A stretch of DNA of 64,000 bases from a bacterium (GTDB lineage Bacteria > Vulcanimicrobiota > JABDET01). Position 1 is the stretch's first letter, and the number at the start of each line of letters is the position of its first letter. The notes under the pieces are model-generated. The model searched no databases, was not told the origin of the DNA, and worked only from the letters and a program-made list of their open reading frames with translations. Below are positions 23,127 to 60,198 of this stretch, piece by piece. The position numbers were made by a program, and so were the translations under genes. The DNA is taken from positions 78,764-142,763 of the forward strand of contig JAKAVV010000003.1 of assembly GCA_021817145.1 (NCBI GenBank), in the 5' to 3' direction.

Positions 23127-23716
23127 GAACCGTCAATAAATTTTTTGCAGCTTTCCACATCCATTACTCTAAGCCATTCTTTTCCATGTCGAACAAAATC
23201 ATCCCATATTAATTCGTCCCAAGAGGAATTCAGGTTAATCAAATGGCTGTTTGCTCGTTTGAAAATGACTCCACAGCCCCAGTCAAAATCTCCAACAGCA
23301 GTGTCTAAATCATGGAATGTTCTAAAATACGCAATAGCTTTCCAAATATCTCCTGTCCATTCCCCTAAACGATGGGGTCCATCTGATATATCTTGCTGTT
23401 TTTCGGTTTTAGGCAGGCAGTCATGCAGAACAATGCACCCACCTGGATTTAAAAACTTTAAGGCATTTTGCACATCACGGACAGCCTGTGAAGCTTCATG
23501 CAGTCCATCAATAAAAACTAAATCGAAATTCATGCAGTTTACTTTAAAGAATTCGTCTGATATTAATCTTAGAGTACCTCCGCTGACAGGATCAACTCCT
23601 ACTTTCCAGGAAGCCAGAACAGCATTAAAACAGGTGTTTCCAGCGCAGCCAATCTCAAGGTATTTTTCATACCCCTTTGTAATGATTAAGTAATTTAAGA
23701 GTTTAATTCGATCCAT
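23123..23716 (-). CDS. Class I SAM-dependent (O-)methyltransferase, small family-3/TylF-like
   Basis: LEIGCAGNTC motif I. VFIDGLHEA and GGCIVLHDC motifs. Confidence 0.6.
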   Translation of the reverse strand: MDRIKLLNYLIITKGYEKYLEIGCAGNTCFNAVLASWKVGVDPVSGGTLRLISDEFFKVNCMNFDLVFIDGLHEASQAVRDVQNALKFLNPGGCIVLHDCLPKTEKQQDISDGPHRLGEWTGDIWKAIAYFRTFHDLDTAVGDFDWGCGVIFKRANSHLINLNSSWDELIWDDFVRHGKEWLRVMDVESCKKFIDGS

Positions 23717-25481: not shown

Positions 25482-26401
25482 TTATGATCCTGCGTTTTTT
25501 TTATTTTTTCCGATATTCTTTCTTTCTGGTGATTGTCATAACTCAGTTTATAAGCTTTCTGATATATTTCCAAAAGGGTTTTATAAGGAAGATAAAGATA
25601 AAGCCAGTTTTCTTTGTTCATGGATTCATACTGCGTTTGAATCCGATCCGCTAAAAATTCGTACCCACTGGCAAAATCCTCATCGAAAAGCTCTTCAGGA
25701 GGAGTGTTTGATACTGCTTTTAGGCAGGCTTTGTCAGAGTTTTTATATTGTTCTTCTGTTAAAAGGGTTTGATTTGTAGAGTGAATTCTATAAAAAGCAA
25801 GATAAGAATCGCATCTTTTGTAGTTGCATAATCGCAGAACTCTGAATAGAAATTCCCAATCATCAGAACCGCGCAGTTCTTCATCAAAGAAGCCGATTTT
25901 TTTAACTATTTCTTTTTTTATCATCCATGACAAAGGGGTCCCAAAAGATTTTCCAAACATTTCTTTTAATGCGGTTTTTCGGTTAGGCAGATCCCCATAA
26001 TGGTTCGGGATAATGGCATCCATCATCAGATACCAGCAGAACACTTCGCAGTATAACAAATCGACCTCAGGCGTCATTTGCTTCAGCATAATCTCAGTTT
26101 TATTTGGAAAAAACAGATCGTCCTGGTCTAAAAATTGAAGATAAGTTCCCTTTGAAGCTTTAATTCCTGTATTTCGAGCTGCTGCCACCCCTTTGTTTTT
26201 ATCGTGAACAATCAATCTTACTCGCGAGTCTTTTTTTTCGTATTTTTTCACGATTTCAGGGGTGTGATCTTTTGACCCGTCATCCACAACAAGAATTTCA
26301 AGGTTCGAATAAGACTGATCAAGACAGCTTTCCAGCGCTTCCCTAATAAAATTTTCACCATTATAAGTTGGTATAACAATGGAAATCAGCGGACTGGACA
26401 T
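25478..26401 (-). CDS. GT2-family glycosyltransferase (paralog of the N-terminal module of the tri-GT2 gene)
   Basis: ISIVIPTYNGENFIREALESCLDQSY..LVVDDGSKDHT. KKDSRVRLIVHDKNKGVAAARNTG is near-identical to the 925-aa protein. Confidence 0.8.
   Translation of the reverse strand: MSSPLISIVIPTYNGENFIREALESCLDQSYSNLEILVVDDGSKDHTPEIVKKYEKKDSRVRLIVHDKNKGVAAARNTGIKASKGTYLQFLDQDDLFFPNKTEIMLKQMTPEVDLLYCEVFCWYLMMDAIIPNHYGDLPNRKTALKEMFGKSFGTPLSWMIKKEIVKKIGFFDEELRGSDDWEFLFRVLRLCNYKRCDSYLAFYRIHSTNQTLLTEEQYKNSDKACLKAVSNTPPEELFDEDFASGYEFLADRIQTQYESMNKENWLYLYLPYKTLLEIYQKAYKLSYDNHQKERISEKIKKTQDHK
26172..26262. repeat. Copy 2 of the near-identical GT2 paralog DNA segment
   Basis: Matches 19541-19631, read directly. 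Confidence 0.7.
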
Positions 26402-26969: not shown

Positions 26970-27890
26970 TTAACGCAGCCAGAGCTCTGATGGAAGTTGT
27001 GGATTACTTAAAGCGTTTGCATTCATTCTTTTCTCTGCTTCTTCATAAGCCACTGCCACTGAACAGCATTGAAGTGGAACAATGGATAAAGCGACAATAA
27101 ATGTAAAAAGGCTTACCGGTATAGCAATAAAAGGAGAAAAAGTTTCAAAAAGCTTTCCTCCAATAGATATTAGAATGCCAAATAAAGGAAAATAAATGAA
27201 GAGAATAATGAGGGGAAATAAATTTCTGTCAACCAGGGATCTGCTTTTACTCATAGCTTCTAAAAACCCTGTCTTTTCTTCAGCAAGTATCGGTTTTACA
27301 AATCGATAGGCAAGAAAATAGTAAAAGAAAGCCGTGATCAAAATAAAAAGCCCGATGATGTAAATCGGATTTAGAAAAAATCCATCTATCCATCCGATAA
27401 GACCAAATCCAATGCTTGATAGTAAAAGCCAGGAGAAAAGGAAGGAATGGATGAGATTACCCCAAAATTTTTGAAATTGAAAGAATTCTGGGAATTTTGC
27501 TTCACGATTTTTTAAAACGTTGAATGCCAGCTTATAGCAGCCAATTGAAAATTGTGAAGAAACAATGGCGAAAAAAGGGATGCCAATGATGCAGAAGAGT
27601 GGGAATAAAAGAGTAAAAGAAATTTGAGTCGTGATTTTTGAAGAAAAAATAAAAAGAAAAAATGACCGCAGCAAAGTGGCAATCTGCTGATGGATCATAG
27701 GTTGATGAGATATTGTAAACGGAGAAATAAAAATTGTTGAGATTGAGATGAAGAGGACAAACAGCCCTATAAAATAAACGAATCCGAGAAACCCTGAGAT
27801 TAAAAGATGAGTAAAGATCCAGGCTATAAATAAGCCAGCGCGTTTTCTAAAAATCCCTGCAGCTTTAGAAAGAGAAGCCCAAATTTGCAC
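26970..27890 (-). CDS. Polytopic integral membrane protein, unknown function
   Basis: About 8 hydrophobic segments. It sits at the edge of the glycan island. No family recognised. Confidence 0.45.
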   Translation of the reverse strand: MQIWASLSKAAGIFRKRAGLFIAWIFTHLLISGFLGFVYFIGLFVLFISISTIFISPFTISHQPMIHQQIATLLRSFFLFIFSSKITTQISFTLLFPLFCIIGIPFFAIVSSQFSIGCYKLAFNVLKNREAKFPEFFQFQKFWGNLIHSFLFSWLLLSSIGFGLIGWIDGFFLNPIYIIGLFILITAFFYYFLAYRFVKPILAEEKTGFLEAMSKSRSLVDRNLFPLIILFIYFPLFGILISIGGKLFETFSPFIAIPVSLFTFIVALSIVPLQCCSVAVAYEEAEKRMNANALSNPQLPSELWLR

Positions 27891-27968
27891 GTTTTCTCAT
27901 TACAACGTTTTACTTTGTTATCCTGCTTTAAACCAGCAGTTTTAAAACTAACAAGGAATTTCAGGATC

Positions 27969-29357
27969 ATGCAAAGAACCGTGTCCAAAATGCAAGTTTC
28001 GCCTCAAAAAAGTAAGGTTTCGAATCAAGAAATAGGATTTATCCTTTTAGCTTTGATTCTTCCCCTTCTCTTTTTTCTTATTTCCGCTTTTTTTCTCTTT
28101 AAAAAAAATGAAGGAACAATTTTGATGGCAGGAATTAATACGAATCAGAAATGGATAGTAAAAATTTGCATAAATACAGGTATCAATTTAAATAAACAGT
28201 ACAGCCTTCCTTATGGCATCACTTTTCCTGTTTATCCTAAACCCTTAAATCCATATAAAACAACCCCTCTTATTCTAGCCTGTACTGTAAGAAAATTAGG
28301 AATAGCAAAAATCTTGATTCGTGATGGGGCTCTAATCAATCAGTCTGTTCAGAATGGAACAACCCCTCTTTTAGCTGCTGCTGCAGTTTCCCGCTTGTCC
28401 CCTTTATTCGCTTTAAAGGCAGTAATATATAAAGGAAAAGATTTGAAATTGGTCCGTTTTCTCTTACTCCATGGAGCTGATGTAAGCTGCATAAATCACC
28501 GAGGACAAACCCCTTTAATGTTAGCCGCTCAATCAGGAGATTTTCAAGTAGTTCGCCTGCTTTTAAGAGATCATGCTGCCCTTCATGTCATGGATAAAAA
28601 TGGCAAAACCCCTTTGATGTATGCGGCTCAAGGAGGGAATCTTAAAATTATACGTTTTTTGCTTTCAAAAGGAGTCAGTCCAGCAGCAGAAGATAAAAAC
28701 GGTAGTACAGCAGCAGTTTTGTCCAAAAATTTTAAAGTTGCGAAGTTTCTTCTTTCTCGACTGCCTGTTGGTTTGCGCGGCTTGCAAGCCAGTAAATTTT
28801 ATCTTCTTATGGCTAAAAAAGGCGAGTGGTACTATTTTTATCAACCTGTTTTGCCAGGTGTGAATCTTGCCAATGTAAAAAGTCCTCATTCTGGTATGAC
28901 CCTTCCTTTTTATGCGGTTTTACAGAATAATCTTTATGCGGCTCGGTACCTTCTTTCTCATGGAGCTAATGTTAATGCAAGGGACAATATTGGGCAGACC
29001 CCTTTAATGCTTTCGTGCTTACATGTCGAATATCCGATGACTAAAATGCTTGTAAGAGCAGGAGCTTCCATTAATCTACAAGATAATCAGGGGAGAACCG
29101 CCTTAATGTATTCGATTACATCAGGTCGATATGCCCATTTAACTCCTAATCTTAATATTTCGTTTTATCTTATTTCAAAAGGTGCAAAATTAAATTTAAA
29201 AGATCGGAAGGGTAGAACTGCCTTGTGGTATGCCGAACGTGAAAGCCAGCAGATTATATCGCTTATTAATGGAGTTTACAATTCAGAAGCTACACGGGCA
29301 ACACGGGCTAGAATGAAAAATATCGTAAAAATTTTAAAACAGCACGGCGCACATTGA
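27969..29357 (+). CDS. Ankyrin-repeat protein with N-terminal transmembrane anchor
   Basis: Multiple ..G.TPLM.AA..G....V..LL..GA..N repeats. The ATG at 27969 follows an AAGGAA RBS; the ORF track start at 27885 would overlap the divergent gene. Confidence 0.75.
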   Translation: MQRTVSKMQVSPQKSKVSNQEIGFILLALILPLLFFLISAFFLFKKNEGTILMAGINTNQKWIVKICINTGINLNKQYSLPYGITFPVYPKPLNPYKTTPLILACTVRKLGIAKILIRDGALINQSVQNGTTPLLAAAAVSRLSPLFALKAVIYKGKDLKLVRFLLLHGADVSCINHRGQTPLMLAAQSGDFQVVRLLLRDHAALHVMDKNGKTPLMYAAQGGNLKIIRFLLSKGVSPAAEDKNGSTAAVLSKNFKVAKFLLSRLPVGLRGLQASKFYLLMAKKGEWYYFYQPVLPGVNLANVKSPHSGMTLPFYAVLQNNLYAARYLLSHGANVNARDNIGQTPLMLSCLHVEYPMTKMLVRAGASINLQDNQGRTALMYSITSGRYAHLTPNLNISFYLISKGAKLNLKDRKGRTALWYAERESQQIISLINGVYNSEATRATRARMKNIVKILKQHGAH

Positions 29358-29369
29358 CAGCATAAGTAG

Positions 29370-29444
29370 TGGCGGGCCAGGCAGGACTTGAACCCACGGC
29401 ATTCGGTTTTGGAGACCGACGTTCTACCACTGAACTACTGGCCC
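29370..29444 (-). tRNA. trnW: tRNA-Trp (anticodon CCA), CCA end encoded
   Basis: Reverse complement: GGGCCAGTAGTTCAGTGGTAGAACGTCGGTCTCCAAAACCGAATGCCGTGGGTTCAAGTCCTGCCTGGCCCGCCA. The cloverleaf was folded by hand: 7-bp acceptor stem, GTTC/GAAC D-stem, anticodon loop CTCCAAA, TTCAAGT T-loop. Confidence 0.85.
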
Positions 29445-46190: not shown

Positions 46191-47960
46191 CTACTGCCGA
46201 GCTGCTGCAACGACCTGATTTCTTCCTTTTTCTTTGCTTTCATAAAGAGCTTTGTCAGCCTGAAGCAGCAGATCTGATTTATTTGATGAGTCATCGGGAT
46301 AAGAAGCAACTCCAATACTGCTCGTGATTTTTACTTTACTGATTCCTGTATTGATTCTGAGCTCAACCGCTTCTCGGATCCGTTTAGCAATTGAGACTGC
46401 AGTCTCCTTTGTTGTTTCCAGAAGAAGAATCGCAAATTCGTCCCCTCCGTATCGGCATACAATATCTGATTCTCGCGTGCAGTCTTTTAATATCTGGCTG
46501 ATTTTTTTCAAAAGGGCATCCCCCTGTGGATGACCATAAGTATCATTATACTCTTTAAAATGATCCAGATCCAGCATAATTAAACATAAGGGCTGATGGT
46601 ATCGTTCACTTCTTTTGACCTCTTCGACCAGCTTTTCCTGAAAGAAGCGGTGGGTGTAAAGTCCTGTCAGCCCGTCTGTTTTAGCCAGTGTTACTGTTTT
46701 TTCATAATTTTCAGCATGAACTAAAATCATGGTTGCCTGATAGGCAAGGAGAGTCAGCAGTTGGAGATTAGCCTCAGTATAAGCCATAGGTTCCGGACTT
46801 CCGATATAAATGACTCCTTTGACTTCTTCTTCCACAATGAGAGGAACAGCCATTTCTGACAGTTCGTTTTCGATAAGCAGAGAGTAAGAGCGCGCTTTTT
46901 GTTTTGTGCTTAAAAAGCTTTTTTTCTCTTCTGCGCACATTCCAACAATTGTTTCTCTTGAACGCACATGAAGATTTTTACATAGATTTCCATAAGGAGA
47001 GTCAAAGCGGCTGGATTGAAGAACGATAGAAGATTTATCTGGATTAGCAAAAAAAATGATGCAGCTTTGATAATTAAAAAGTTGTTTAAAATACTCCAGG
47101 ATAACCTTAAAAGTGTAATCTAAGGTAAGGTTGGATCCTATTTTTTTGCCAAAGTCTAAAATCAACCCTTGTTCAAAGTTTTTCTTTTCAACGGTTTGTT
47201 CTAAATCTTCAGAATGTTTTTTCTCATGTTCTAGATCTAACTTTGTTTTTTCCAGCTCTTCAAGGATGACAGCGCTTGTTTTTACAGGTTCTTTTTTCAG
47301 CAGAGAGAAAAGAAGCAGCTGAAGAAGAAAAACGCAGATCGCTAAAAGCAAGGCATTCTCCTGATTCTTATAGAGAGCAGCAGCTGTTCCAAGGAAAGGG
47401 GCGGTAAAACTCAAAAGAAGGGTTTGATATCGGGCTTTAAACCACTGCGCCTGAGCTGATTCAAGAAGAGAAGCTCCAATGGCAACTCCTTCTAAAAAAG
47501 CCTCAAAAATAGAGTAAAGCGGAGCAGAACTGAGTATCATCAAGTAATGGATAGTATGGGGCTGAGGTTCTTTCGATAAAATAATAACAGGTATCGCCGC
47601 AAAAAGGACAGTAAGAAGTTTTTGAAAAGGATAGAAAAACTTTAAAGATGCCGGGCTTTGAGGGTCTTTTAAAAAAGCTCTGAGCGAGGCGCCGACAAAT
47701 GCGGTAACAGCGCATAAAAGAATCGCTTGATGAAGGATGAGATACAGATAAAAAGCGCTGGATAAACTTGACCATCCTGAATAGGGGAGGGAAGGGGAAA
47801 AAATTTCCAGGAACAAGGCTGAAATAACCGCTGCGGCAATCGCTGTAGTTTCTCCATTTTGATAGGTTGGAACAATAAAAGCCGTGATCCCAAATCCCAC
47901 CAGGGAAATCAGGATTAAAATGAATAATAAGATTTTAGATTGAACTTGTTCTGTTTTCAA
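46191..47960 (-). CDS. Membrane-anchored GAF-GGDEF diguanylate cyclase
   Basis: About 6 N-terminal TM helices, a GAF-like middle, and the GGDEF domain with GLTGLYTHRFF..RYGGDEFAIL. Confidence 0.8.
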   Translation of the reverse strand: MKTEQVQSKILLFILILISLVGFGITAFIVPTYQNGETTAIAAAVISALFLEIFSPSLPYSGWSSLSSAFYLYLILHQAILLCAVTAFVGASLRAFLKDPQSPASLKFFYPFQKLLTVLFAAIPVIILSKEPQPHTIHYLMILSSAPLYSIFEAFLEGVAIGASLLESAQAQWFKARYQTLLLSFTAPFLGTAAALYKNQENALLLAICVFLLQLLLFSLLKKEPVKTSAVILEELEKTKLDLEHEKKHSEDLEQTVEKKNFEQGLILDFGKKIGSNLTLDYTFKVILEYFKQLFNYQSCIIFFANPDKSSIVLQSSRFDSPYGNLCKNLHVRSRETIVGMCAEEKKSFLSTKQKARSYSLLIENELSEMAVPLIVEEEVKGVIYIGSPEPMAYTEANLQLLTLLAYQATMILVHAENYEKTVTLAKTDGLTGLYTHRFFQEKLVEEVKRSERYHQPLCLIMLDLDHFKEYNDTYGHPQGDALLKKISQILKDCTRESDIVCRYGGDEFAILLLETTKETAVSIAKRIREAVELRINTGISKVKITSSIGVASYPDDSSNKSDLLLQADKALYESKEKGRNQVVAAARQ

Positions 47961-50435: not shown

Positions 50436-50957
50436 GAGAGCTAGCCGGGTGATCGCGGAGCTGAGAGTCGAGAAGTTAGATTAAGATTCGCGCTTCGAGG
50501 AAAGTCCGAGCTCCACAGGATAAGGTGCTGGGTAATACCCAGTAGAGGCGACTCTAGCAAAGTGCCACAGAAATGTTAACCGCCATAAGATCTTTTACAA
50601 ATCGCCTGTCCGGCAAAAATAAGATCTGTGGTAAGGGTGCAACGGCGGGGTAAGAGCCCACCAGTCATCTGGCGACAGATGAGCTAGGCAAACGCCACCT
50701 GGAGCAAGATCAAGCAGGGGGAACATTTATCGGATCTGTTGATGCAGCTTAGGTATGTGTGTGAAGGGTTGGTCATCAATGGGTTTATAAGATAATGTTA
50801 TGTAATCCTGGCAGTACCCCGGGTCGATCGCTAGAAACTGTCCAGTAATGGCAGTTCAAGATAGATGATCACCTTCTGCTCAATGCCAATAAAAGCTCCG
50901 TTAGAGCTGAAAAATGGCAGGATGCAGAAACAGAACTCGGCTTACAGGTTAACTCTC
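50436..50957 (+). ncRNA. rnpB: RNase P RNA (bacterial type A-like), unusually long
   Basis: GAGGAAAGTCCGAGCTCCACAGG (P4 5' strand). ACAGAAATGTTAACCGCC. GGGTGCAACGGCGGGGTAAGAGCCCACCAG. CCACCTGGAGCAAGATCAAGCAGGGG. ACAGAACTCGGCTTACAGG (P4 3' strand). Covariation with the E. coli M1 RNA pair GUCCGGG/CCCGGCU appears here as GTCCGAG/CTCGGCT. The ends are approximate. Confidence 0.85.
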
Positions 50958-51293
50958 TATTTTTTTTATTTTCTCGCTATCTACTGTTCCATCTTCTCGT
51001 TCTATCTGAATAAAAGGATCCCGATAAAGCGGTGATAATCCACTGTATCTGCACTTAACTTCATTGTGATAACAAGGAAGAATATTGCCGCAGTAAATAG
51101 ATCCCTGTTCCCCTTTAACAGAAGAGTTTTTGTAATCTGGATATTCTACAAGAATCGGCACACTTTTTTGCAAAATAAAACAAAACTTCTCTTGAGGCTC
51201 AAGAGCTTTTTGTTTTAATTGAACTTCAACCGCTTTTTTCCGAAGGCTCATTCTATTGGCTTCATCATACCATAACAAGGGGATAAAAAGCAA
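50949..51293 (-). CDS. Hypothetical protein (114 aa)
   Basis: ORF only. Its 3' end abuts the rnpB 3' end. Confidence 0.3.
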   Translation of the reverse strand: MLFIPLLWYDEANRMSLRKKAVEVQLKQKALEPQEKFCFILQKSVPILVEYPDYKNSSVKGEQGSIYCGNILPCYHNEVKCRYSGLSPLYRDPFIQIEREDGTVDSEKIKKIES

Positions 51294-51377: not shown

Positions 51378-52259
51378 ATGGCAAAGTTTTTTGGGCAGTA
51401 TTTATTGGAGAAAGGAATTCTTACCAGAGAACAGCTTTTAGAAGCTTTAACAAAACAGAGAGAAAAAGTTGAAAAAATAGGGGAACTGGCTGTTCGTAAA
51501 GGGTATTTAAAACCTCGCGACATTGAAGCGATTCAAAGGGAACAGCAGAAAAGCGATCTTTATTTTGGGGAAGCTGCTGTTAAACTTAATCTGCTGACAG
51601 AAGATCAGGTGAGAGAATTATTGAATATTCAAAGATCAAATCATGTTTACCTTGGAGAAATCATTGTGGATTTAAAATTTTTATCTAAAGAATCGGTGGA
51701 AAAAGAATTGAAAAGATTTCAGGAAGAAGAACAAGAAGGGGGAAGTGTCGGTGAACTGCATGTTCCATCTTCCTGCGCTCATCCCGAGCTGTTAAAAGCG
51801 ACGGCAGATTTGGCGATTAAACTTTTTCGGCGTGTTTCAGATTTGCTGGTAAAAGTTTCCACTGTGCTGGATACTGAAAAAGTCGAAAATCCCTATTCCC
51901 TGACTTTTATTAATATCAGCGGGGATTTTAAAGGCTCTCTTGCCCTAGGATGCTCAAAAAATGTCGTTCTTCATATTGCGAAAAATTTTGGAGGCAGCCG
52001 TCTAGATTGGAGCAGTGAAAAATTTGCTCACGACGCTGTTTCGGAATTTTTTAATATTTTCTGCGGAAATTTAATGACAAAATGGATGGAAATAGGGAAA
52101 TCTTGCGAGATTTCGGTTCCTTATTTTTTTCTGAAAACAGAGAAAGACGGTTTAAAAATCGGGAACGGCGCGCGCGTTTTTACTTTGGATTTAGACTCAA
52201 CTGAAGGAAAAGCTTCTGTCAGTCTTATTCCAAATTTTATTTTAGAAAAAACTGTTTAA
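51378..52259 (+). CDS. Tandem MshEN-type (T2SS-E N-terminal, c-di-GMP-binding) domains fused to a CheX-like CheY-P phosphatase domain
   Basis: Four consecutive 24-aa MshEN motifs: FGQYLLEKGILTREQLLEALTKQ, IGELAVRKGYLKPRDIEAIQREQ, FGEAAVKLNLLTEDQVRELLNIQ, LGEIIVDLKFLSKESVEKELKRFQ. The C-terminal half aligns with CheX: INISGDFKGSLALGCSKNVVLHIAKNFGG .. DAVSEFFNIFCGNL .. ISVPYFF, including the E-x-x-N catalytic pair. Confidence 0.65.
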   Translation: MAKFFGQYLLEKGILTREQLLEALTKQREKVEKIGELAVRKGYLKPRDIEAIQREQQKSDLYFGEAAVKLNLLTEDQVRELLNIQRSNHVYLGEIIVDLKFLSKESVEKELKRFQEEEQEGGSVGELHVPSSCAHPELLKATADLAIKLFRRVSDLLVKVSTVLDTEKVENPYSLTFINISGDFKGSLALGCSKNVVLHIAKNFGGSRLDWSSEKFAHDAVSEFFNIFCGNLMTKWMEIGKSCEISVPYFFLKTEKDGLKIGNGARVFTLDLDSTEGKASVSLIPNFILEKTV

Positions 52260-52287: not shown

Positions 52288-52671
52288 ATGAGCTTACAGG
52301 ATAAAAAAGTAATGATTGTAGATGATTCAAAAGCCATGATTATGCTGCTGAAGCGGATTTTAGAAGAAGGCGGGTATCAAGTTGTGGGAGAGATACAAAC
52401 TGGGGAAGATGCCGTGATTCAGTATGATAAACTGAAACCCGATCTGGTTACAATGGATTTAATCCTACCTGGAATCAGCGGTATTGACGCGATTAAAAGA
52501 ATTTTAGGAAATGATCCCAAAGCTTGCATTGTAGCTGTCAGCTCTGTAGGTGGGACTCCAGAAAAATTAATGGATGCTTTAAAAGCCGGGGCGAGAAATG
52601 TTATTAGCAAACCTTTTGATCCAGAAAAAGTCACTAAAATTTTAAATGATGTTTTAGCTGCTCATAAATGA
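52288..52671 (+). CDS. Single-domain CheY-like response-regulator receiver
   Basis: IVDDS acidic pocket, phospho-acceptor TMDLILPG, conserved T/S and KPF. 127 aa. Confidence 0.8.
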   Translation: MSLQDKKVMIVDDSKAMIMLLKRILEEGGYQVVGEIQTGEDAVIQYDKLKPDLVTMDLILPGISGIDAIKRILGNDPKACIVAVSSVGGTPEKLMDALKAGARNVISKPFDPEKVTKILNDVLAAHK

Positions 52672-53900
52672 GCCCTTCCCCTGAAATTCCTTCCTGGCTT
52701 GAGGAAGAATCAAAAGAGCCTGCTGAAGAGAATTTAAGGGTTCCTATTCAACCTCATGTGCGGCCTATTAAAAAAAGGTCAAATTCAGCCCTGACTTTTA
52801 AAAAAATTTGGGAGGATAGAAGACAGTTAACGGGAAAATGGATCCCCCCTGTATCATTAAAAGTTAGTCTTAAAAACCTTTCCATATTTTCAAAACAGTT
52901 AGGGTTAATGATGGGTTCAGGGGTTACTCTTGTGAAGGCATTTGATATTTTAGGAACTCAAGGGGAAGATAAAAAGTTAAGAGAAGCTGCTCTTAAAGTA
53001 AAAGAAGGAGTTCTTTCAGGGTATGCCATTAGTTCTGCCCTTGAAAAAAAACCTGATATTTTCCCCCCTTTTTTCCGTTTTGCTGTACGCTCTGCTGAAA
53101 CTTCGGGAACTCTGCCCAAGACTCTTCTCAAACTGTCGGATTATTATGAAAAAATCAATTTGCAGAATCAGAAAGTGAAAGGCTCTCTTATTTATCCTGT
53201 TTTTGTTTTTGTGACTACTTTAGCTTTGTTTATGTTTTTGATCTCTTACATTTTTCCAATGTTTTCATCATTTTTTAAAGGGCTCCATTATCACCTTCCC
53301 TTGATTACTCGAATTCTGTTTTTCATTTTCCATTTATTGACAAGCGGCTGGTTTTGGGGGATTATTCTTGTTTTGGTGGTTGGTTTATATGCTGCATGGA
53401 AAACGAGCATAAAACGATCCGATTTTGCTTTATGGCTGAATATTCAGCAGCTGCAGATTCCTTTAGCTGGTCCCTGTTTGCAAAAAATTCAGAGTTCCTA
53501 TTTCTGCCGAACCCTTGCCACAATGCTGAATGCGGGGGTCAATCTTTTGACAGCTTTAGAAGTGTTTCAAAAAGGGATCGGAATGCCAGTCTTTAAAATT
53601 TTTTACAATAATATTCAGGAAGAGTTAAGAGCTGGATCCTCTTTGTCTCAAACCATAAAAGATATCTCTTTTTTTCCGCGGGCTGCTCAGGATCTAATCC
53701 TGGTTGGGGAAGAATCAGGAAATCTCTCGGCAATGTTGGAAAAAGCCGCTGATTTTCTGGATATTGAAATTGATACTTTAATTCAAAACTTAATGACTTT
53801 GATAGAACCCCTGCTTATTCTTTTTTTGGGGGTTATGGTGGCAGCGGTTTTGATAGGGATTTTTCTTCCTTTGTATTCGGCGATCAGCCAGATCCATTAA
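52668..53900 (+). CDS. pilC: Type IV pilus / type II secretion inner-membrane platform protein (PilC/GspF family)
   Basis: Two GspF-type repeats and three TM segments. Motifs LSKQLGLMMGSGVTLVKAFDIL and ..TLATMLNAGVNLLTALEV... ATGA overlap with the CheY gene. The first ~60 aa extend beyond the usual family N-terminus. Confidence 0.75.
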   Translation: MSPSPEIPSWLEEESKEPAEENLRVPIQPHVRPIKKRSNSALTFKKIWEDRRQLTGKWIPPVSLKVSLKNLSIFSKQLGLMMGSGVTLVKAFDILGTQGEDKKLREAALKVKEGVLSGYAISSALEKKPDIFPPFFRFAVRSAETSGTLPKTLLKLSDYYEKINLQNQKVKGSLIYPVFVFVTTLALFMFLISYIFPMFSSFFKGLHYHLPLITRILFFIFHLLTSGWFWGIILVLVVGLYAAWKTSIKRSDFALWLNIQQLQIPLAGPCLQKIQSSYFCRTLATMLNAGVNLLTALEVFQKGIGMPVFKIFYNNIQEELRAGSSLSQTIKDISFFPRAAQDLILVGEESGNLSAMLEKAADFLDIEIDTLIQNLMTLIEPLLILFLGVMVAAVLIGIFLPLYSAISQIH

Positions 53901-54000
53901 CAGGCGCAGCATGATTTCAATTAAATTGCGGGGAAAAGCCGTAAGGCTTTCGTAAATCGAGGTCTGTAGAGGCTGATTGGAATCTGAAATTTTCGGGGAT

Positions 54001-54029
54001 TTGAATTTTTTTCAACTTTGTAGTATAAT
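54001..54029 (+). promoter_or_regulatory. Consensus-like sigma70 promoter TTGAAT-17-TATAAT upstream of the pilin genes
   Basis: Read directly. The -35 is at 54001-54006, the -10 at 54024-54029, and the pilin start is at 54051. Confidence 0.5.
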
Positions 54030-54050
54030 TGGAATAACCGGAAATACTAA

Positions 54051-54452
54051 ATGATAAAATTGAAAGGGAAAAAAGGGATTAGTTTGCTGGAAGCCATGAT
54101 TTCTGTGGTCATTCTTGGAGTGGTTGCAGCGATTATGCTCGGAATTTTTCAAGTTTCATTCAACAGCATTTCGGATTCTTCTAACACTTATCTAGCAACT
54201 CTTATTGCCCAGAACAAAATGGAATATGACACTGAAAGTGGATATGCGGGGGTTGGAGGTCCGTCTATCGGTCCCTGGAAGCCTGTTTCTGTGCCTAATG
54301 GAAATCAGTATGCAACTTTTGAATGGCAGCAGTCTGTTCAGCAGGTAAATCTTGATTTGAAAGAGGTGGATATAACGGTTATGTGGAAGCAAAAAGGAGC
54401 TGCAGGCACATACAGAAAATATGTGATACTGTCCACAAGGATAGCCCAATGA
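54051..54452 (+). CDS. Type IV pilin / pseudopilin (prepilin-type N-terminal cleavage/methylation domain)
   Basis: MIKLKGKKG|ISLLEAMISVVILGVVAAIML: Gly at -1, Glu at +5, and a hydrophobic helix. 133 aa. Confidence 0.75.
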   Translation: MIKLKGKKGISLLEAMISVVILGVVAAIMLGIFQVSFNSISDSSNTYLATLIAQNKMEYDTESGYAGVGGPSIGPWKPVSVPNGNQYATFEWQQSVQQVNLDLKEVDITVMWKQKGAAGTYRKYVILSTRIAQ

Positions 54453-55153
54453 AAAAAGACGGGTTTTCAGGAATGACTTTAGTGGAAGTTTTAGTGGCTA
54501 TGATTGTGGTTGGTATTGTGATGAGCATTACTCTCGGAATTTTTGTTGCCAGCCGCCATTATTATCAGGCAGGATCCAGTCGTGTGGATGCGCAGTCTTC
54601 TGCTGAACTGGCATTAAATCGCTTAGTTCGAGAGATTCAAGAATCGGATCCTTCTGGAATCTCTACCCTTACTCCAGGAACTATTGTTTTAGTTTCGGCT
54701 AGAGAGGCTAATGGTAATCAGTTTGCAATCTATAATGGAATACCCAGCGGAAGCAGTACCCCTCCTTACTGCGGCAGCTCTCCTGCCTCAGATACAGGGA
54801 AGCCATGCTGGCAGAAATGGATTTGCTACTATTTAGCTCCACAGTCAGGGAGCAGTTATCAGGAGCTGATTCGAGTGGAAGGGAATCCAACAGGCTCTTC
54901 TTTCCCGAACACCGTGATCCCACCTTCTATTCCTTCTGCTCCTGCATTCCAGGGGGTTGGGCTTCCTCAAACTGTAATGGCTCGAAATATTAAAACATTT
55001 AATGTTCAGAGTTCCTGCGGTTTACCTGGAATTGATTATATTCAACTGACTGCAGCAGAAAACAACAATGGATTAACCATCACTTATAATCCTGGGTTCC
55101 AGGTTGGAAGCTGCGGGACAGGGAATTGGATTGAAGCGCTGCCGAGAAATTAA
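54449..55153 (+). CDS. Type IV pilin / pseudopilin (prepilin-type), 235 aa
   Basis: Start at the ATG that overlaps the upstream stop as ATGA. MKKDGFSG|MTLVEVLVAMIVVGIVMSI with Glu at +5. The ORF track's upstream extension from 54383 is unlikely. Confidence 0.7.
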   Translation: MKKDGFSGMTLVEVLVAMIVVGIVMSITLGIFVASRHYYQAGSSRVDAQSSAELALNRLVREIQESDPSGISTLTPGTIVLVSAREANGNQFAIYNGIPSGSSTPPYCGSSPASDTGKPCWQKWICYYLAPQSGSSYQELIRVEGNPTGSSFPNTVIPPSIPSAPAFQGVGLPQTVMARNIKTFNVQSSCGLPGIDYIQLTAAENNNGLTITYNPGFQVGSCGTGNWIEALPRN

Positions 55154-55168
55154 GGGGGTGGAACAAAA

Positions 55169-56461
55169 ATGAAGCATAAGAAAGGGATTGTTCTAGCGTA
55201 TGTTTTAATTTTTCTGCTGGTTTTAGTGGTGCTGGGTTTTGCTTTAGGTTCTTCTGGCATTTTTTCATTGTCCCGCTCATTTCAAATTCAAAATTCAACT
55301 TCTGCTCTGTATGCTGCTCAAGCGGGAATTGCTGATGAGGTTTATAATATTGAAGAGAATCAACTTGCGCCTGTTCCTCAATGTCCACCTTCTGTTGGTA
55401 ATAATAGTTATACTCTTCCGAACACCATTCTCCCCAATAATACCAGGATCTCAAATCAAACGATTTTAGCTAATTATGGAAGCGGATGTGCGAGTTCTGC
55501 TGTTATCAATGGGATTACCATCCCTCCTGGAATGGCTTATTTGAGCGCAGTGGGAAGTATTTCAACGACCCATAAAACAGTGAATGAACTGCTTCAAATT
55601 GACAGTTGGCCATTTCAGGGCGCAGGGTTTGGCAGCAGTTCTGTCGCATTAAGTGGAAATGCCTCAACTGATAGTTATGAATCTAAAGCTTGTGGAGGAG
55701 GGATGTATGGTGGAAGTAATATCTCTCAAGATGGAAATATAGGAACTAATTCTTCGTCAAATGGAGCTGTTGACTTAAGTGGAAACGCTGATATCGGAGG
55801 AGCTGTCAGTGTTGGACCTGGAGGAACGGCCGGATCTCCGACTGTTTCCACTTCAGGCAGTGTCAACTGCCCTGGATCTTCATGTTCTGGCGGAGTTAAT
55901 ATTCTTCCTGCTCCTTTTCCAATGCCAGTTATTACAGATCCTTATGGAGGGGCAGGAACAACTAATGTTAACCTTTCTGGAAGCACGAATTATGGAGTTC
56001 TTACCCCAGGGCAGTATGGAAGTATTTCTTTGTCTGGAACCTCTACTCTTGAATTGACTTGCGGGAATTATTCCATTAATAGTTTACAGATGAGTGGAAA
56101 TGGAGAAATCACGATTGATTCTTCATGTTCAGAATCAAACCCCGTAAAACTGTATGTTTACAACTCTTTAACAATTTCAGGGAATGGATTTATCAATAAT
56201 GAGGAAGCTCCTACTTTGTTGATTTACGGGATGCCTACTCTGACCACCGCATCTATTAGCGGCAATGGAAATGGAGGGTATGCCCTTTATGCTCCAAATA
56301 CTAACGTCACGATTACAGGGAATGGGGATCTTTACGGGTCAATTATTGGAAAAACAATCACTAACTCCGGAAACGCTAAAATCCACTATGACACATGTCT
56401 TGGGATAGATGCTTACACAAAACTCAATCTTCCTATTCCTAAAAGCTGGAACTCCCAGTGA
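55169..56461 (+). CDS. PilX-like minor pilin / pilus-tip protein with long Gly/Ser/Asn-rich repetitive (beta-helix-like) region
   Basis: Hydrophobic PilX_N-like N-terminus MKHKKGIVLAYVLIFLLVLVVLGFALGS with no Glu at +5. This is followed by ~350 aa of SGN/GGS-rich repeats (..SGNASTD.., ..SGNADIGG.., ..ISGNGNGG.., ..ITGNGDLYG..). Confidence 0.5.
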   Translation: MKHKKGIVLAYVLIFLLVLVVLGFALGSSGIFSLSRSFQIQNSTSALYAAQAGIADEVYNIEENQLAPVPQCPPSVGNNSYTLPNTILPNNTRISNQTILANYGSGCASSAVINGITIPPGMAYLSAVGSISTTHKTVNELLQIDSWPFQGAGFGSSSVALSGNASTDSYESKACGGGMYGGSNISQDGNIGTNSSSNGAVDLSGNADIGGAVSVGPGGTAGSPTVSTSGSVNCPGSSCSGGVNILPAPFPMPVITDPYGGAGTTNVNLSGSTNYGVLTPGQYGSISLSGTSTLELTCGNYSINSLQMSGNGEITIDSSCSESNPVKLYVYNSLTISGNGFINNEEAPTLLIYGMPTLTTASISGNGNGGYALYAPNTNVTITGNGDLYGSIIGKTITNSGNAKIHYDTCLGIDAYTKLNLPIPKSWNSQ

Positions 56462-56467
56462 AATGGA

Positions 56468-58294
56468 TTGAAAACTTTCCCCGTGATCCTTAATCATCAG
56501 TATGAAATTAAAGAAAAACTGGCTGAAGGGGCTAAAGGAGCTTTTTTTTCCGCTTTCAATCAAAAAAGCGGATCGAACTGTCTTGTTAAAGCTTACAGAA
56601 GCTTTTCAAAAGTGGAAGATTATCGAGGAATTCAGGAAGAGATAGACAGTCTTAAAAAAATTAAAGATAACGCGCCTCCTATTCTCTTAAAAGTTTTAGA
56701 TGTTTTTGAAGAAAACAAAGCCTGGTATGCGATTTTTGAGGAGATAAAAGGGGTTCCTTTAATGAAAGCTTTTTCTCCCTTAAAAGGACAGTTAAGCTCT
56801 GAAGAGACTCTGCGGTATTTTTTAGAACTAGTTGATGGAATTTCCATTTTGGAAAAGGAGAATGAAAATTTGAGAATCACCAGCCTCAGCCCTGAAAATA
56901 TCATCCTGACAGGAGAAGAGATTAAAATCTTGGATTTCGAACAAGACCTGGTCCTAGAGGGAAATCTATCCCCCTTGGAAAACACCCATTTTTTATCAGA
57001 ACAAGAAGTCTTAGAAAGATTGGGAAGAATATTGTATTTTCTCCTGACTCGAGAAACTCCCCCTTTTTCTCTTTCCAATTGGCGGGATCCCCGCGAGTTT
57101 AATCCTGGTTTGCACCCTGGACTGCTGAGCATTTTAAGAAAGTGTGTGGATCCAAGACCAGAAAAGCGGTTCCAAAATCTAGGAAATCTTCAAGCAGAAC
57201 TGCGCAGCCCTGATCTGCTCAAACAAAAAGAGAGAGAAAAAAAACAAGCTGATCTCCTTATTCCACTCAGCCAGATTTTACCCCAGGGAGAAAAAAAGGA
57301 AATTCCTGCCTGGAAAGCCATTTTAGCGATCCCTATCCTTCTTGGGTTTCTGTTTTTAATAAAATACAGTTTTAATTTTTTGTTCAGTTCCCCTTCGAAT
57401 TCTTCCCTTAAAAAGTTCGCTGTTCAAGAAAAAACATTGTGCGCTGCCATTCCAAAAGGGATTGGCTGGTTTAATCTAAAGACAGGAAAAGAGATTAAGT
57501 CCTTTCCACTAGCAGGAAATTTCAATGATCTGATTCCTGTCCCTTCTCTGCAAGAATTTATTGTCACGGACTCTAATTCAAACAGCGCTTTTTTGGTGAA
57601 CCCCAATCAGCCTGAAAATCGCTGGCATTTGATTTTCGACGGCGCTGTAAAAGCGATTGTTTTTAAGGCTTCAGATGGGCTTATCTATGTTTGCAGTGGA
57701 GAGGATCGGCAGATTGTTCAAACAACTCTAGAGGCAGACAGCGTTTTTTCTTCTACCATTCATTTTCCTTATCCACCTGTCCGGCTGATTCTTAATCCAT
57801 CAGGAAAAAAGCTTTATATTGCTTCAAGACATGATTTATCTCTTCGAGTTTTGGATACCAACGCAAACAGCGTGGAAAAGCTCTCTACTTTCCCTGAACC
57901 TCCTGTTCTTTTATATGCAGGGGAAAGCCGTCTAGCGGTTTATCTTCCTCAATCCCAAGTTTTAGAAGTATTAACTGTTTCAGGGAATCCAATCTCTTCA
58001 TTTCCCATTGATTTAAGCAAGGAATCTCAAATGATCTTCTTTCCTCCACATACCGGTATTATCTGGTCTCATGGGAAAAGTTTAAGGATTTTAAATTTAA
58101 AATTGGGTCAGATGATTCAAAGGATAAGACTGAGTTTTTCCCCCTTTCTTGCTGTCAAAGATCCTGGAACAAGGAAATTTTTCATGGCGGGGAAAAGAGG
58201 AGGGATTTATCTTTTTTCTCTTGAGAATCCTGATTCTCCACAAAAAATATTTGTTCTCCCAGGAGTCTCTGCATTGAGTGTCTGGGATCCGTAG
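56468..58294 (+). CDS. Membrane-anchored protein-kinase-like (probably catalytically dead) domain + TM + C-terminal beta-propeller (YVTN/WD40-like)
   Basis: Kinase-like subdomains: LAEGAKGAFFSA, CLVKAY (VAIK-like Lys), SPENIIL (KPEN-like) and ILDFE (DFG-like). The HRD Asp position reads ITS. TM segment AILAIPILLGFLFLI. C-terminal repeats such as LIYVCSGEDRQI.. and KKLYIASRHDLSLRVLD. Confidence 0.55.
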   Translation: MKTFPVILNHQYEIKEKLAEGAKGAFFSAFNQKSGSNCLVKAYRSFSKVEDYRGIQEEIDSLKKIKDNAPPILLKVLDVFEENKAWYAIFEEIKGVPLMKAFSPLKGQLSSEETLRYFLELVDGISILEKENENLRITSLSPENIILTGEEIKILDFEQDLVLEGNLSPLENTHFLSEQEVLERLGRILYFLLTRETPPFSLSNWRDPREFNPGLHPGLLSILRKCVDPRPEKRFQNLGNLQAELRSPDLLKQKEREKKQADLLIPLSQILPQGEKKEIPAWKAILAIPILLGFLFLIKYSFNFLFSSPSNSSLKKFAVQEKTLCAAIPKGIGWFNLKTGKEIKSFPLAGNFNDLIPVPSLQEFIVTDSNSNSAFLVNPNQPENRWHLIFDGAVKAIVFKASDGLIYVCSGEDRQIVQTTLEADSVFSSTIHFPYPPVRLILNPSGKKLYIASRHDLSLRVLDTNANSVEKLSTFPEPPVLLYAGESRLAVYLPQSQVLEVLTVSGNPISSFPIDLSKESQMIFFPPHTGIIWSHGKSLRILNLKLGQMIQRIRLSFSPFLAVKDPGTRKFFMAGKRGGIYLFSLENPDSPQKIFVLPGVSALSVWDP

Positions 58295-59026
58295 TCAGCT
58301 CTTGTTTTGAATTTTAAACTGTTGATAAAGGAGCGGCCTTTGGTTTTCTAAATTGACTACTAAACGAACGCTTTCTCCATCGCAGAAAAACTGGATATGA
58401 ATTCCAGAGTTATGTTCTAGCGAACTCTTTTGAGCTTTTTGAAGAGCATCTAAAAGGCTGACAGCTGGCTCTTGTTCAGGAAGCAGATTGGCTTTTTTCA
58501 TCAACTCTTTTATGAAATCTATCACGGATGGGACAAAGAGCTCTGAATTGATTCTCAGTTCCAGAGAAACATCTTTAATTGTTTTAGAGTGGTTTGATAG
58601 AGATAAAGGTTCGGATTGATTTCTAGCTTCTTTCACTGCTTCATTGGCAAGTCTGTCAGCGATTTTGTTTTTTTCGCGAGGCACATGCTGATAGGTGATT
58701 TCCTTGAATGCGCCGCTTAATTTAACTGCCTGATGATAAAGAATTTTCAACTTCTCGTCTTTGATTTGATAAATTCCTTTGAGCTGATTAATGACTAACT
58801 CGCTGTCAGAAAATACCTGGACTCGTTCAGCTCCTAGATCATGAGCTGCTTGAAGGGCTGTCAAAAGAGCTGTATATTCGGCTTGATTGTTAGTGGCAGT
58901 TCCTATAAATTTTTTGATTTCGCGCTGTCCTTTTGAATTTTCGAACAGAACAGCTCCAATGCCTGCAGGTCCAGGATTCCCTTTTGAAGCTCCATCGAAA
59001 TAAAGGACGATCTCTTTAGCGCTCAT
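58295..59026 (-). CDS. rnhA: RNase H (type 1, RVT_3/RNase-HI-like) with ~100-aa C-terminal extension
   Basis: YFDGASKGNPGPAGIG (Asp), NNQAEYTAL (Glu), VFSDSELV (Asp), ADRLANEA (Asp). The start is probably the ATG at 59026, overlapping the upstream stop as ATGA. The ORF track extends to 59206 in an overlapping frame. Confidence 0.65.
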   Translation of the reverse strand: MSAKEIVLYFDGASKGNPGPAGIGAVLFENSKGQREIKKFIGTATNNQAEYTALLTALQAAHDLGAERVQVFSDSELVINQLKGIYQIKDEKLKILYHQAVKLSGAFKEITYQHVPREKNKIADRLANEAVKEARNQSEPLSLSNHSKTIKDVSLELRINSELFVPSVIDFIKELMKKANLLPEQEPAVSLLDALQKAQKSSLEHNSGIHIQFFCDGESVRLVVNLENQRPLLYQQFKIQNKS

Positions 59027-60198
59027 TTGGTCCGATCCGATTCTGACATTAATTTTTGAATTTTTTGGACTGCTTTTGTTTCTGTGATCTGTTTTCGAAG
59101 AGTGGATTTTACAATTTCCGCTATTGTTTTTAATTCCGACACAGCATGAGGCGAATTTAAGGGTGGGGAAGACCGCGATATTTCCTGAATATAAACTTTC
59201 ATCCACGGGCGTTTTAAGCGTACGTTTTGAAGGTAATCCGGCGAGAGATAGACCTGTTTATTGACAGGTACAGTATTAGTTTTTACAGCCCAGAATTTTA
59301 ACTGGCGGTAATCTGTGATGTAATTGGCAAAATCCCATCCTTTTTTCCCAAAAAAAGCAATCCCTTGAACCTGGAGATATCCCCATAACTTCCCTGCTTC
59401 AGGAAGTGGTTTAACCAGGAATTCGTTTTTAAGAGAAGCTGTTTCATTAGGAAGAAGAATCCAGCTTTTTCCTCGTTTAAAGTCTAATGGGATCGAATAA
59501 GGATGAAGAGTGGTCAAATGGTAACGATTAACCCAGTTCCACCAGACATTTAAAGTGGCTAATTTTTGGTGAAAAAATGTCGAATTTTCTGCTGAGAAAG
59601 TTTTCGAAAAATCTTCCCAAAACTGCCCTAAATCGCTCGAGCTCCATTCGAAAGGAAGAACAATGCCTTCTGTTTTTTCTCCTGGTTCTGTTTTTTTCAC
59701 TAAATTGCTCCACTGACTTAAAGTTGAAATTTGTGCAGAAGGTCTAAAGCTTTTTTTGTTTAGAACCAAAGCAGCTGTTTCTGCTGAAAAAGGGATAATC
59801 CATGCTTGTTTATTGAAAACACAGGACTCCCATATAGGTCTAAAAGTGTCGGATTCAACCATGACCTCAACTGCTGCCCCTGCTTTTTTTAAAATGGTAT
59901 CAGCGGGAAGCAGTTTAGAGCTTAAGCTTCCAATCCACTGGCTGTTAATTAAAGCCAGATCTGGAGATTTGCCTGTTTTAAGGAGATGGAATAAAAGAGC
60001 TGGCGAAGAGATGTTTTTTAATATAACAGGATGATAAGAGTGCTCGGAATTATAATGACGAACAAGTTTTGCCATGACTTTATATTCTGATGGAGAGAGC
60101 GCGGTCCAAAAGCTTCTAGGGCTGACTTGAGCCCATAAACGCGCTGCAGAAAGCCAGAAAAAACAAAATGCAAAAAGGAGAATTGCTCTTTTTATCAC
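59023..60198 (-). CDS. Extracellular solute-binding protein (ABC-type, family-1-like), orphan
   Basis: Signal peptide MIKRAILLFAFCFFWLSAARLWAQ. Size and Trp-rich pattern fit sugar-type SBPs. No permease or ATPase genes are adjacent. Confidence 0.45.
   Translation of the reverse strand: MIKRAILLFAFCFFWLSAARLWAQVSPRSFWTALSPSEYKVMAKLVRHYNSEHSYHPVILKNISSPALLFHLLKTGKSPDLALINSQWIGSLSSKLLPADTILKKAGAAVEVMVESDTFRPIWESCVFNKQAWIIPFSAETAALVLNKKSFRPSAQISTLSQWSNLVKKTEPGEKTEGIVLPFEWSSSDLGQFWEDFSKTFSAENSTFFHQKLATLNVWWNWVNRYHLTTLHPYSIPLDFKRGKSWILLPNETASLKNEFLVKPLPEAGKLWGYLQVQGIAFFGKKGWDFANYITDYRQLKFWAVKTNTVPVNKQVYLSPDYLQNVRLKRPWMKVYIQEISRSSPPLNSPHAVSELKTIAEIVKSTLRKQITETKAVQKIQKLMSESDRTK

Follow-up and report, generated by a model that had tools for sequence, protein, structure and literature searches.

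A tandem MshEN_N–CheX fusion protein and its conserved CheY-like receiver partner in a lineage of the Vulcanimicrobiota

The fusion gene and its domains

We analysed a 64,000-nucleotide stretch of bacterial DNA (hereafter the window: positions 78,764 to 142,763, forward strand, of contig JAKAVV010000003.1 in GenBank assembly GCA_021817145.1; GTDB lineage Vulcanimicrobiota, JABDET01) and focus here on a gene whose product joins two tandem MshEN_N units, the predicted receptor modules for cyclic di-GMP (c-di-GMP), to a CheX-type phosphatase domain, and on the CheY-like receiver (REC) gene that follows it after a gap of 28 nucleotides (nt). The fusion gene opens a same-strand gene run, just after an RNase P RNA and a small divergent open reading frame (ORF). 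A GGAGG sequence stands 4 nt before its ATG, and this start is correct because all homologues of the protein begin M-x-[KR]-F-F-G. The exact protein, with the same gene order, is found on at least 24 public contigs, including those of the metagenome-assembled genomes (MAGs) GCA_027421625.1 and GCA_027421865.1, and a promoter and terminator scan around the operon gave nothing better than shuffles. Numbered by window position, the central features are as follows.

51378..52259, + strand: (MshEN_N)2-CheX fusion gene, 293 amino acids (aa), from the ORF and its translation
51387..51545, + strand: MshEN_N unit A (aa 4-56), made up of motif 1 FFGQYLLEKGILTREQLLEALTKQ, spacer REKVE and motif 2 KIGELAVRKGYLKPRDIEAIQREQ
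51561..51719, + strand: MshEN_N unit B (aa 62-114), made up of motif 3 YFGEAAVKLNLLTEDQVRELLNIQ, spacer RSNHV and motif 4 YLGEIIVDLKFLSKESVEKELKRF
51720..51782, + strand: acidic linker (aa 115-135, QEEEQEGGSVGELHVPSSCAH), with a lower predicted local distance difference test score (pLDDT) and no regular secondary structure over ~121-135
51783..52232, + strand: CheX domain (aa 136-285), Pfam CheX and CheC both above cutoffs
52032..52055, + strand: helix of the predicted phosphatase active site, D219-AVS-E223-FF-N226, aligned to GELGN of Thermotoga maritima CheX
52288..52671, + strand: single-domain CheY-like REC, the predicted substrate (Pfam Response_reg, 91 bits)

The N-terminal part of the protein holds, as the original prediction had it, four consecutive 24-residue motifs in register (aa 4-27, 33-56, 62-85 and 91-114), each with exactly 5 residues after it, which gives a 29-residue period, with Gln at the end of motifs 1-3 and Phe at the end of motif 4. 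The published MshEN_N unit consists of two 24-residue motifs and a 5-residue spacer, 53 residues in all (Wang et al. 2016, PMC5013675). NCBIfam profile NF053729 ('cyclic di-GMP-binding domain, MshE-related') matches the protein in two stretches at 75.2 bits (E=2.6e-21, cutoff 38), the best being aa 5-56 in unit A, and a profile search of the PDB aligned aa 61-109 to residues 8-56 of Vibrio cholerae MshE (5htl) and aa 5-52 to the N-domains of PilF (GSPII-B) and PilB. An AlphaFold2 model built from an 11-sequence alignment (mean pLDDT 82, predicted template modelling score 0.65) has eight helices, those of unit A at residues 2-11, 17-30, 34-40 and 46-59, followed by the linker (~aa 121-135) and an alpha/beta domain; in the family alignment the acidic linker (aa 115-135) varies in both length and sequence. 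Foldseek superimposed an N-terminal unit on c-di-GMP-bound MshE (5htl_B) with a root-mean-square deviation (rmsd) of 0.7 Å over 56 columns, a match assigned to unit B, and on PilF-GSPIIB with an rmsd of 1.2 Å. In 3.4% of shuffled sequences a looser hydrophobic-core pattern turns up one or more times, so that the evidence for MshEN_N lies in the profiles and the fold and not in a regular expression. Weak N-terminal matches to FumaraseC_C and DUF4388 fell below their cutoffs and were disregarded.

These data call for a narrower description than the 'two complete MshEN domains' proposed at the outset: two MshEN_N units are there, without the MshEN_C (T2SSE_N1) half. In the model, helix 8 leads through the linker into the CheX fold and no MshEN_C half is present, and the Pfam scan of the fusion protein, which recovered CheX, gave no match to T2SSE_N, as fits the absence of that half in a protein with two MshEN_N subdomains rather than a complete MshEN. 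Wang et al. (2016, PMC5013675) place (MshEN_N)2-CheX under 'MshEN_N only'.

The C-terminal assignment to CheX stands as originally made. Pfam CheX PF13690 matches at 49.9 bits (E=3.3e-13, cutoff 27) and CheC PF04509 at 24 bits (cutoff 22), while the PDB profile search returned the CheX structures 1xko, 1squ, 3hm4 and 3hzh_B at E 1e-10 to 1e-13 (1xko and 1squ at ~1e-12). By Foldseek the C-terminal domain falls on CheX 3hm4_B (E=4e-10, TM(target) 0.85, rmsd 2.2 Å); FliM middle domains and CheC-like proteins of no assigned activity also match the CheX-like fold. Profile support for the predicted MshEN_N and CheX domains is far beyond chance.

To call the protein a 'novel domain fusion', as the original prediction did, was wrong, because the architecture was catalogued in 2016 with an example from the same family: Supplementary Table 4 and Supplementary Fig. 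3c of Wang et al. (2016, PMC5013675) list '(MshEN_N)2 - CheX', exemplified by Glov_2742. The sequence of Glov_2742 (Geobacter lovleyi, ACD96455; MAVKFFGQFLVEQ..., ...HLYIGEALV..., ...LAAF) bears the same-family signatures, and on these it is a member of the family of the window protein; the fusion architecture has thus been known since 2016 and the window protein adds a new member. In a profile search of 1.84 billion cluster representatives the family comprises at least 472 50%-identity clusters at E<=1e-30, and almost all of the top 150 representative matches, mostly proteins of ~280 aa, span the full length of the profile. Species-representative genomes, when scanned, yielded 92 confirmed relatives, among them Nitrospirota, Desulfuromonadales/Geobacter, Binatia, Oceanospirillaceae, Elusimicrobiota, Clostridia, Spirochaetia, Sericytochromatia, Planctomycetota and others. 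As delimited by these searches, the family is widespread across many phyla.

Predicted ligand contacts and phosphatase site

Motif residues of V. cholerae MshE (VcMshE) were mapped onto units A and B through the profile alignment to solved MshE, PilF and PilB domains.

VcMshE R9: F4 in unit A, Y62 in unit B
VcMshE L10: F5 in unit A, F63 in unit B
VcMshE G11: G6 in unit A, G64 in unit B
VcMshE G18 (turn): G13 in unit A, N71 in unit B (departs)
VcMshE I19: I14 in unit A, L72 in unit B
VcMshE L25: L20 in unit A, V78 in unit B
VcMshE L29: L24 in unit A, L82 in unit B
VcMshE Q32: Q27 in unit A, Q85 in unit B
VcMshE R38: K33 in unit A, Y91 in unit B
VcMshE L39: I34 in unit A, L92 in unit B
VcMshE G40: G35 in unit A, G93 in unit B
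VcMshE G47 (turn): G42 in unit A, K100 in unit B (departs)
VcMshE F48: Y43 in unit A, F101 in unit B
VcMshE L54: I49 in unit A, V107 in unit B
VcMshE L58: Q53 in unit A (departs), L111 in unit B
VcMshE Q61: Q56 in unit A, F114 in unit B (departs)

Unit A departs from the VcMshE residues at R9 (F4) and L58 (Q53). Isothermal titration calorimetry (ITC) on VcMshE mutants gives these positions their weight: G11L left no detectable binding, G40I cost 72-fold, L10A, L39A and L29A 28- to 38-fold, L58A 10-fold, and Q32A and Q61A 9- to 12-fold, with Q61A at 12-fold (Wang et al. 2016, PMC5013675). In the same study MshEN_N alone bound c-di-GMP more tightly than the longer MshEN(1-145) construct, and natural loss of binding was put down to G40E and F48K; for XpsE, G11V and I19R were among the changes held responsible. 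None of these four binding-loss substitutions occurs in the window protein, where the equivalents of G11, G40 and F48 are retained in both units and neither unit has I19R.

The same positions stand out in the family, for which all residue counts given here rest on 76 homologues. Depending on the motif, 67-76 of them keep Gly at motif position 3 (all four motifs) and 73-75 keep Gln at position 24 (motifs 1-3), a conservation that is hard to explain by the fold alone because those residues contact the ligand. All 76 have F-F-G at the start of unit A, 75 with K/R before it, and the KFFGQ[YF]LL segment surpasses the remainder of the helical units in conservation, which is consistent with a functional site there. 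Binding of c-di-GMP by at least one unit is probable, unit A being the likelier in this protein, and the affinity may perhaps be micromolar.

A gapless alignment with T. maritima CheX pairs SEFFN of the CheX domain with GELGN, GDFKGSL with GGIEGSL and ISVP with ITPP. With P248 placed 21 residues beyond N226, the signature reads D219-x3-E223-x2-N226-x21-P248, and the fusion protein carries what we take to be the single-site signature of CheX, namely D/S-x3-E-x2-N with a conserved Pro ~21-22 residues further on; a second ExxN was not seen in the first helix of the domain as read from the sequence. The residues are kept in nearly the whole family (D219 in 72 of the 76 homologues, E223 in 74, N226 in 75, G230 in 76 and P248 in 74), and the predicted D-x3-E-x2-N site is under strong conservation and selection.

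The receiver partner and the genomic setting

The nearest solved relatives of the window REC are the CheY proteins of P. horikoshii (4e-31) and T. maritima (3e-30), with other receivers at ~1e-14; Thermotoga-type CheY is the class served by the CheC, CheX and FliY phosphatases. We surveyed 80 genome loci with family members, REC status being confirmed by Pfam. A small REC gene is directly adjacent on the same strand in 61 of the 80 loci (46 upstream, 15 downstream), and in nine others the REC is fused in the same ORF, N-terminally in six and C-terminally in three, so that REC is adjacent or fused in 70 of 80. Every phospho-acceptor residue is kept in all 70 partner RECs: D12, D13, D57, K108 and P109 never vary, and at position S85 a single REC has Thr against Ser in the other 69. 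Since the flanking context varies while the REC partner is kept, the conserved unit is the fusion together with its CheY-like receiver. The 'direct physical link' between c-di-GMP sensing and dephosphorylation of phosphorylated CheY (CheY-P) that the original prediction announced remains a link that we infer, and it is strengthened by a REC partner that is conserved, adjacent or fused; the conserved and sometimes fused CheY partner is new support for the predicted function. A 700-aa protein from the representative search (P0042) continues from its CheX domain into PAS-HisKA-HATPase_c, a complete histidine kinase confirmed by Pfam, and holds receiver kinase, phosphatase and c-di-GMP-type modules in one chain.

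Beyond the REC gene the same-strand run continues into genes of a pilus-like kind.

52668..53900, + strand: PilC/GspF-type platform protein (Pfam T2SSF, 190 bits, two stretches)
54051-54452 and 54383-55153, + strand: pilin-like genes with a prepilin N-methylation motif (Pfam N_methyl, 25 and 24.4 bits, cutoff 21.2)
55169-56461, + strand: PilX_N/DUF7305 protein, pilin-like (DUF7305, 60.7 bits)
56468..58294, + strand: Ser/Thr protein kinase with a long C-terminal region (Pfam Pkinase, 43.6 bits)

The PilC start overlaps the REC stop by 4 nt. The NCBIfam GspF/PilC matches for this protein are below their equivalog cutoffs. The Ser/Thr kinase gene, which has the same position in loci L001 and L007, ends the run. 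Among the ~40 window ORFs scanned we found no PilB/PilT ATPase, CheA, CheW or methyl-accepting chemotaxis protein (MCP), and no assembly ATPase, prepilin peptidase or secretin; the genes at 52668-58294 (+) are an incomplete or split pilus or pseudopilus gene set. This PilC/pseudopilin/Ser-Thr-kinase context recurs only in a 69%-identical relative, and next to a 53%-identical homologue the REC is followed by an unrelated Usp-domain gene. A pilus context as a family trait was rejected, PilC standing beside the module only in the 69%-identical relative and in none of the other 79 loci, and the PilC/pseudopilin operon context is lineage-specific. MCP, CheW, CheA, CheR or CheB genes flank the module in 18 of the 80 loci; the other 62 lie outside che clusters and look like stand-alone pairs.

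Enzymes of c-di-GMP turnover were also considered. An enrichment of GGDEF or HD-GYP genes near the module was not established, ~11 of 80 loci being roughly what chance would give in GGDEF-rich genomes. The window itself has one such gene nearby.

46191-47960, - strand: GAF and GGDEF membrane protein (GGDEF, 169 bits)

Its GGDEF motif is intact, with an RESD (RxxD) I-site five residues before it, and the protein is likely an active diguanylate cyclase. A distance of 3.4 kb separates its gene from that of the predicted c-di-GMP receptor, and synteny holds in the closest relative; family-wide linkage to a cyclase gene of this kind was not shown. HD-GYP domains are c-di-GMP phosphodiesterases. In two loci, L047 (an Elusimicrobiota MAG) and L074 (an unclassified bacterial MAG), a REC-(MshEN_N)2-CheX protein is followed within ~2 kb by a second REC and a REC-HD-GYP protein, the latter confirmed by Pfam HD_5 for the L047 gene and identified by homology search only for the L074 gene; the arrangement hints at a feedback loop in that clade.

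The remaining features of the window stand apart from the module.

50437-50960, + strand: bacterial class A RNase P RNA (Rfam RF00010, 255.8 bits)
50949-51293, - strand: 114-aa ORF without a Pfam match
58295-59206, - strand: RNase H / RVT_3 (reverse-transcriptase-like) domain protein
27885-29357, + strand: 490-aa protein consisting of ankyrin repeats over nearly its whole length (Ank_2, 219 bits, five stretches)
29373-29444, - strand: tRNA gene, just after the ankyrin-repeat gene on the opposite strand
16993-19770, - strand: 925-aa protein with three family-2 glycosyltransferase stretches

The RNase P RNA, directly upstream of the intergenic region that precedes the fusion gene, is 524 nt long against a model of 367 positions and hence contains sizeable insertions. 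Its final 12 nt are overlapped on the opposite strand by the 3' end of the 114-aa ORF, a gene call that recurs at this place in the identical contigs and, as a 121-aa product without a Pfam match, in the 69%-identical relative. The gene at 58295-59206 converges on the end of the pilus-like operon and has the same place in the closest relative. Ankyrin-repeat proteins are uncommon in free-living bacteria. Several more glycosyltransferase genes and one encoding tetratricopeptide repeats lie at 19990-26401, beside the gene at 16993-19770, and together these look like a polysaccharide biosynthesis cluster.

Functional reading and relation to known systems

We lean, with modest confidence, towards reading the fusion protein as a CheX-type phosphatase for the adjacent CheY-P that is modulated by c-di-GMP bound to its tandem MshEN_N units. 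We posit that c-di-GMP would occupy at least one N-terminal unit, with unit A the better candidate, and that its occupancy would raise or lower the activity of the CheX domain or alter its dimerisation or oligomeric state, or its placement. The altered CheX domain would in turn determine how long the receiver encoded 28 nt downstream stays phosphorylated, so that the level of the second messenger would be converted into a level of CheY-P. In the window lineage the output plausibly lies, on local grounds, in the co-oriented PilC and pilin-like genes; in other lineages, those with che genes, it would be a chemosensory pathway. A more specific idea, possible but doubtful, is that a type IV pilus-like or pseudopilus machine has taken over the fusion and CheY pair as its c-di-GMP input and is governed by the phosphorylation level of the CheY-like protein; control would then run through the receiver rather than, as in MshE and PilB, through an MshEN domain of the assembly ATPase. 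The prevalence of orphan pairs, at 62 of 80 loci outside che clusters, could indicate a general converter of c-di-GMP into receiver phosphate beyond chemotaxis.

Several observations weigh against c-di-GMP control of the phosphatase. The literature yielded no experimental study of any (MshEN_N)2-CheX member, only the 2016 catalogue entry; no histidine kinase or CheA was found among the ~40 window ORFs scanned; and the GGDEF or HD-GYP genes near the module in ~11 of 80 loci are not clearly above background in our single-query search. Others concern the MshEN_N units themselves. Not one of the four motifs fits the relaxed motif of Wang et al., [RKPN]hGxxhhxx[GAS]hhxxxxhxxxhxx[QNKRYWST], in full: the deviating residues are F at position 1 in motif 1, Q at 21 in motif 2, Y at 1 and N at 10 in motif 3, and Y, K and F at 1, 10 and 24 in motif 4. 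The published MshEN pattern, to which all four had been said to conform, is borne out in layout, in the NF053729 score and in fold, but not to the letter. Unit A has Gln (Q53) at the L58 position, which is mostly polar across the family, and its I19 position is Arg or Lys in 29 of the 76 homologues, a change that is among those behind the failure of XpsE to bind. In unit B both turn glycines are replaced (N71, K100), where most of the family has Gly, and its second Gln is absent family-wide, motif 4 ending in F, Y or H in 76 of 76. The departure of every motif from the relaxed pattern, the ending of motif 4 and the polar L58 position, together with the loss of binding through few substitutions in the homologous domains of XpsE and ABF44566_III (Wang et al. 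2016, PMC5013675), would also suit a constitutive CheY-P phosphatase whose non-binding MshEN_N units serve as a dimerisation, scaffold or targeting module, like the degenerate N-domain of XpsE. We hold such a scaffold to be unlikely: the window protein has none of G11V, I19R, G40E and F48K, the Gly and Gln of the motifs are kept as described above, and the MshEN_N domain of Aeromonas veronii CheA still binds with a dissociation constant of 2.6 µM despite an Arg-to-Met change at position 1 and three others (PMC5013675).

The remaining alternatives question the enzyme or its setting. The CheX-like domain might be non-enzymatic, a CheY-P-binding adaptor recruited by phosphorylated REC and c-di-GMP and comparable to the CheC-like fold of FliM; the matches of the fold to FliM middle domains and CheC-like proteins, the 62 loci outside chemosensory clusters and the REC fusions are all compatible with a binding role. 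The D-x3-E-x2-N-x21-P signature, however, is kept in 72-75 of the 76 homologues, the best matches by both structure and sequence are true CheX enzymes and not FliM, and FliM to our knowledge lacks this catalytic signature, all of which makes an adaptor improbable. We give as little credence to a dedicated pilus or secretion component, in which the N-domain split off from a missing PilB/GspE ATPase would carry CheX. The tight same-strand packing of fusion gene, REC and PilC, with pilin-like genes after them, would agree with such an origin, as would the failure to find an ATPase nearby and the normal place of MshEN_N at the N-terminus of such ATPases (Wang et al. 2016, PMC5013675). Against it, PilC and the pseudopilins accompany the module only in the closest relative, and the 53%-identical homologue, with its REC and then a Usp-domain protein, again leaves fusion plus REC as the conserved unit.

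If c-di-GMP does modulate the phosphatase, these proteins would provide a one-polypeptide bridge between second-messenger signalling and the two-component or chemosensory phosphorelay in hundreds of lineages. Our survey supplies a defined substrate in the adjacent REC, natural REC fusions such as P0021 and P0107, a kinase fusion, targets for point mutants and cultured hosts, among them Trichlorobacter (Geobacter) lovleyi SZ with Glov_2742 and Pseudoteredinibacter isoporae (loci L069 and L081). The family would offer a widespread, ready-made system in which to examine whether c-di-GMP directly controls a receiver phosphatase, a candidate for characterisation rather than a discovery.

On the phosphatase side, the window CheX domain shares its fold with T. 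maritima CheX (1xko/1squ) and with CheX in the Borrelia burgdorferi CheX-CheY3-BeF3 complex (3hzh), both of which act on a CheY-type receiver and likewise have a single active site with the Glu/Asn pair on one helix. These are stand-alone proteins of ~155 aa with no sensor, whereas the window protein adds ~135 N-terminal residues made up of c-di-GMP-type modules. CheX functions as a homodimer whose subunits share a beta-sheet. On the receptor side, the N-domains of V. cholerae MshE (5htl) and Thermus PilF GSPII are the same 53-residue four-helix unit, superimposed at 0.7-1.2 Å. Their role is to regulate a pilus or secretion ATPase, and they include MshEN_C, in contrast to the window protein, which has neither MshEN_C nor an ATPase and has Phe or Tyr at position 1 in three of its four motifs where MshE has Arg.

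Glov_2742 has the same domain order as the window protein and shares with it an N-terminal KFFGQ[YF]L, four motifs spaced by 5 residues and, where the last Gln would stand, an aromatic residue; it is a catalogue entry only (Wang et al. 2016, Nat Commun 7:12481). The window protein is ~30% identical to Geobacter-type members and, unlike Glov_2742, comes from an uncultured lineage and stands in a PilC/pseudopilin operon. In A. veronii CheA an MshEN_N unit likewise sits inside a chemotaxis phosphorelay protein and binds c-di-GMP by ITC (Wang et al. 2016), although there a single unit is attached to the kinase, whereas here two units are attached to a phosphatase. Current interest in the same link is evident from work in V. 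cholerae, where the c-di-GMP receptor PlzC modulates a CheX phosphatase acting on CheY-3, its control of motility through CheX being reported as separate from its c-di-GMP-dependent role in biofilm (Park et al. 2026, PNAS, PMC12799141). PlzC is a separate PilZ protein that acts in trans; in the window protein, by contrast, the predicted receptor module and CheX are carried by one polypeptide.

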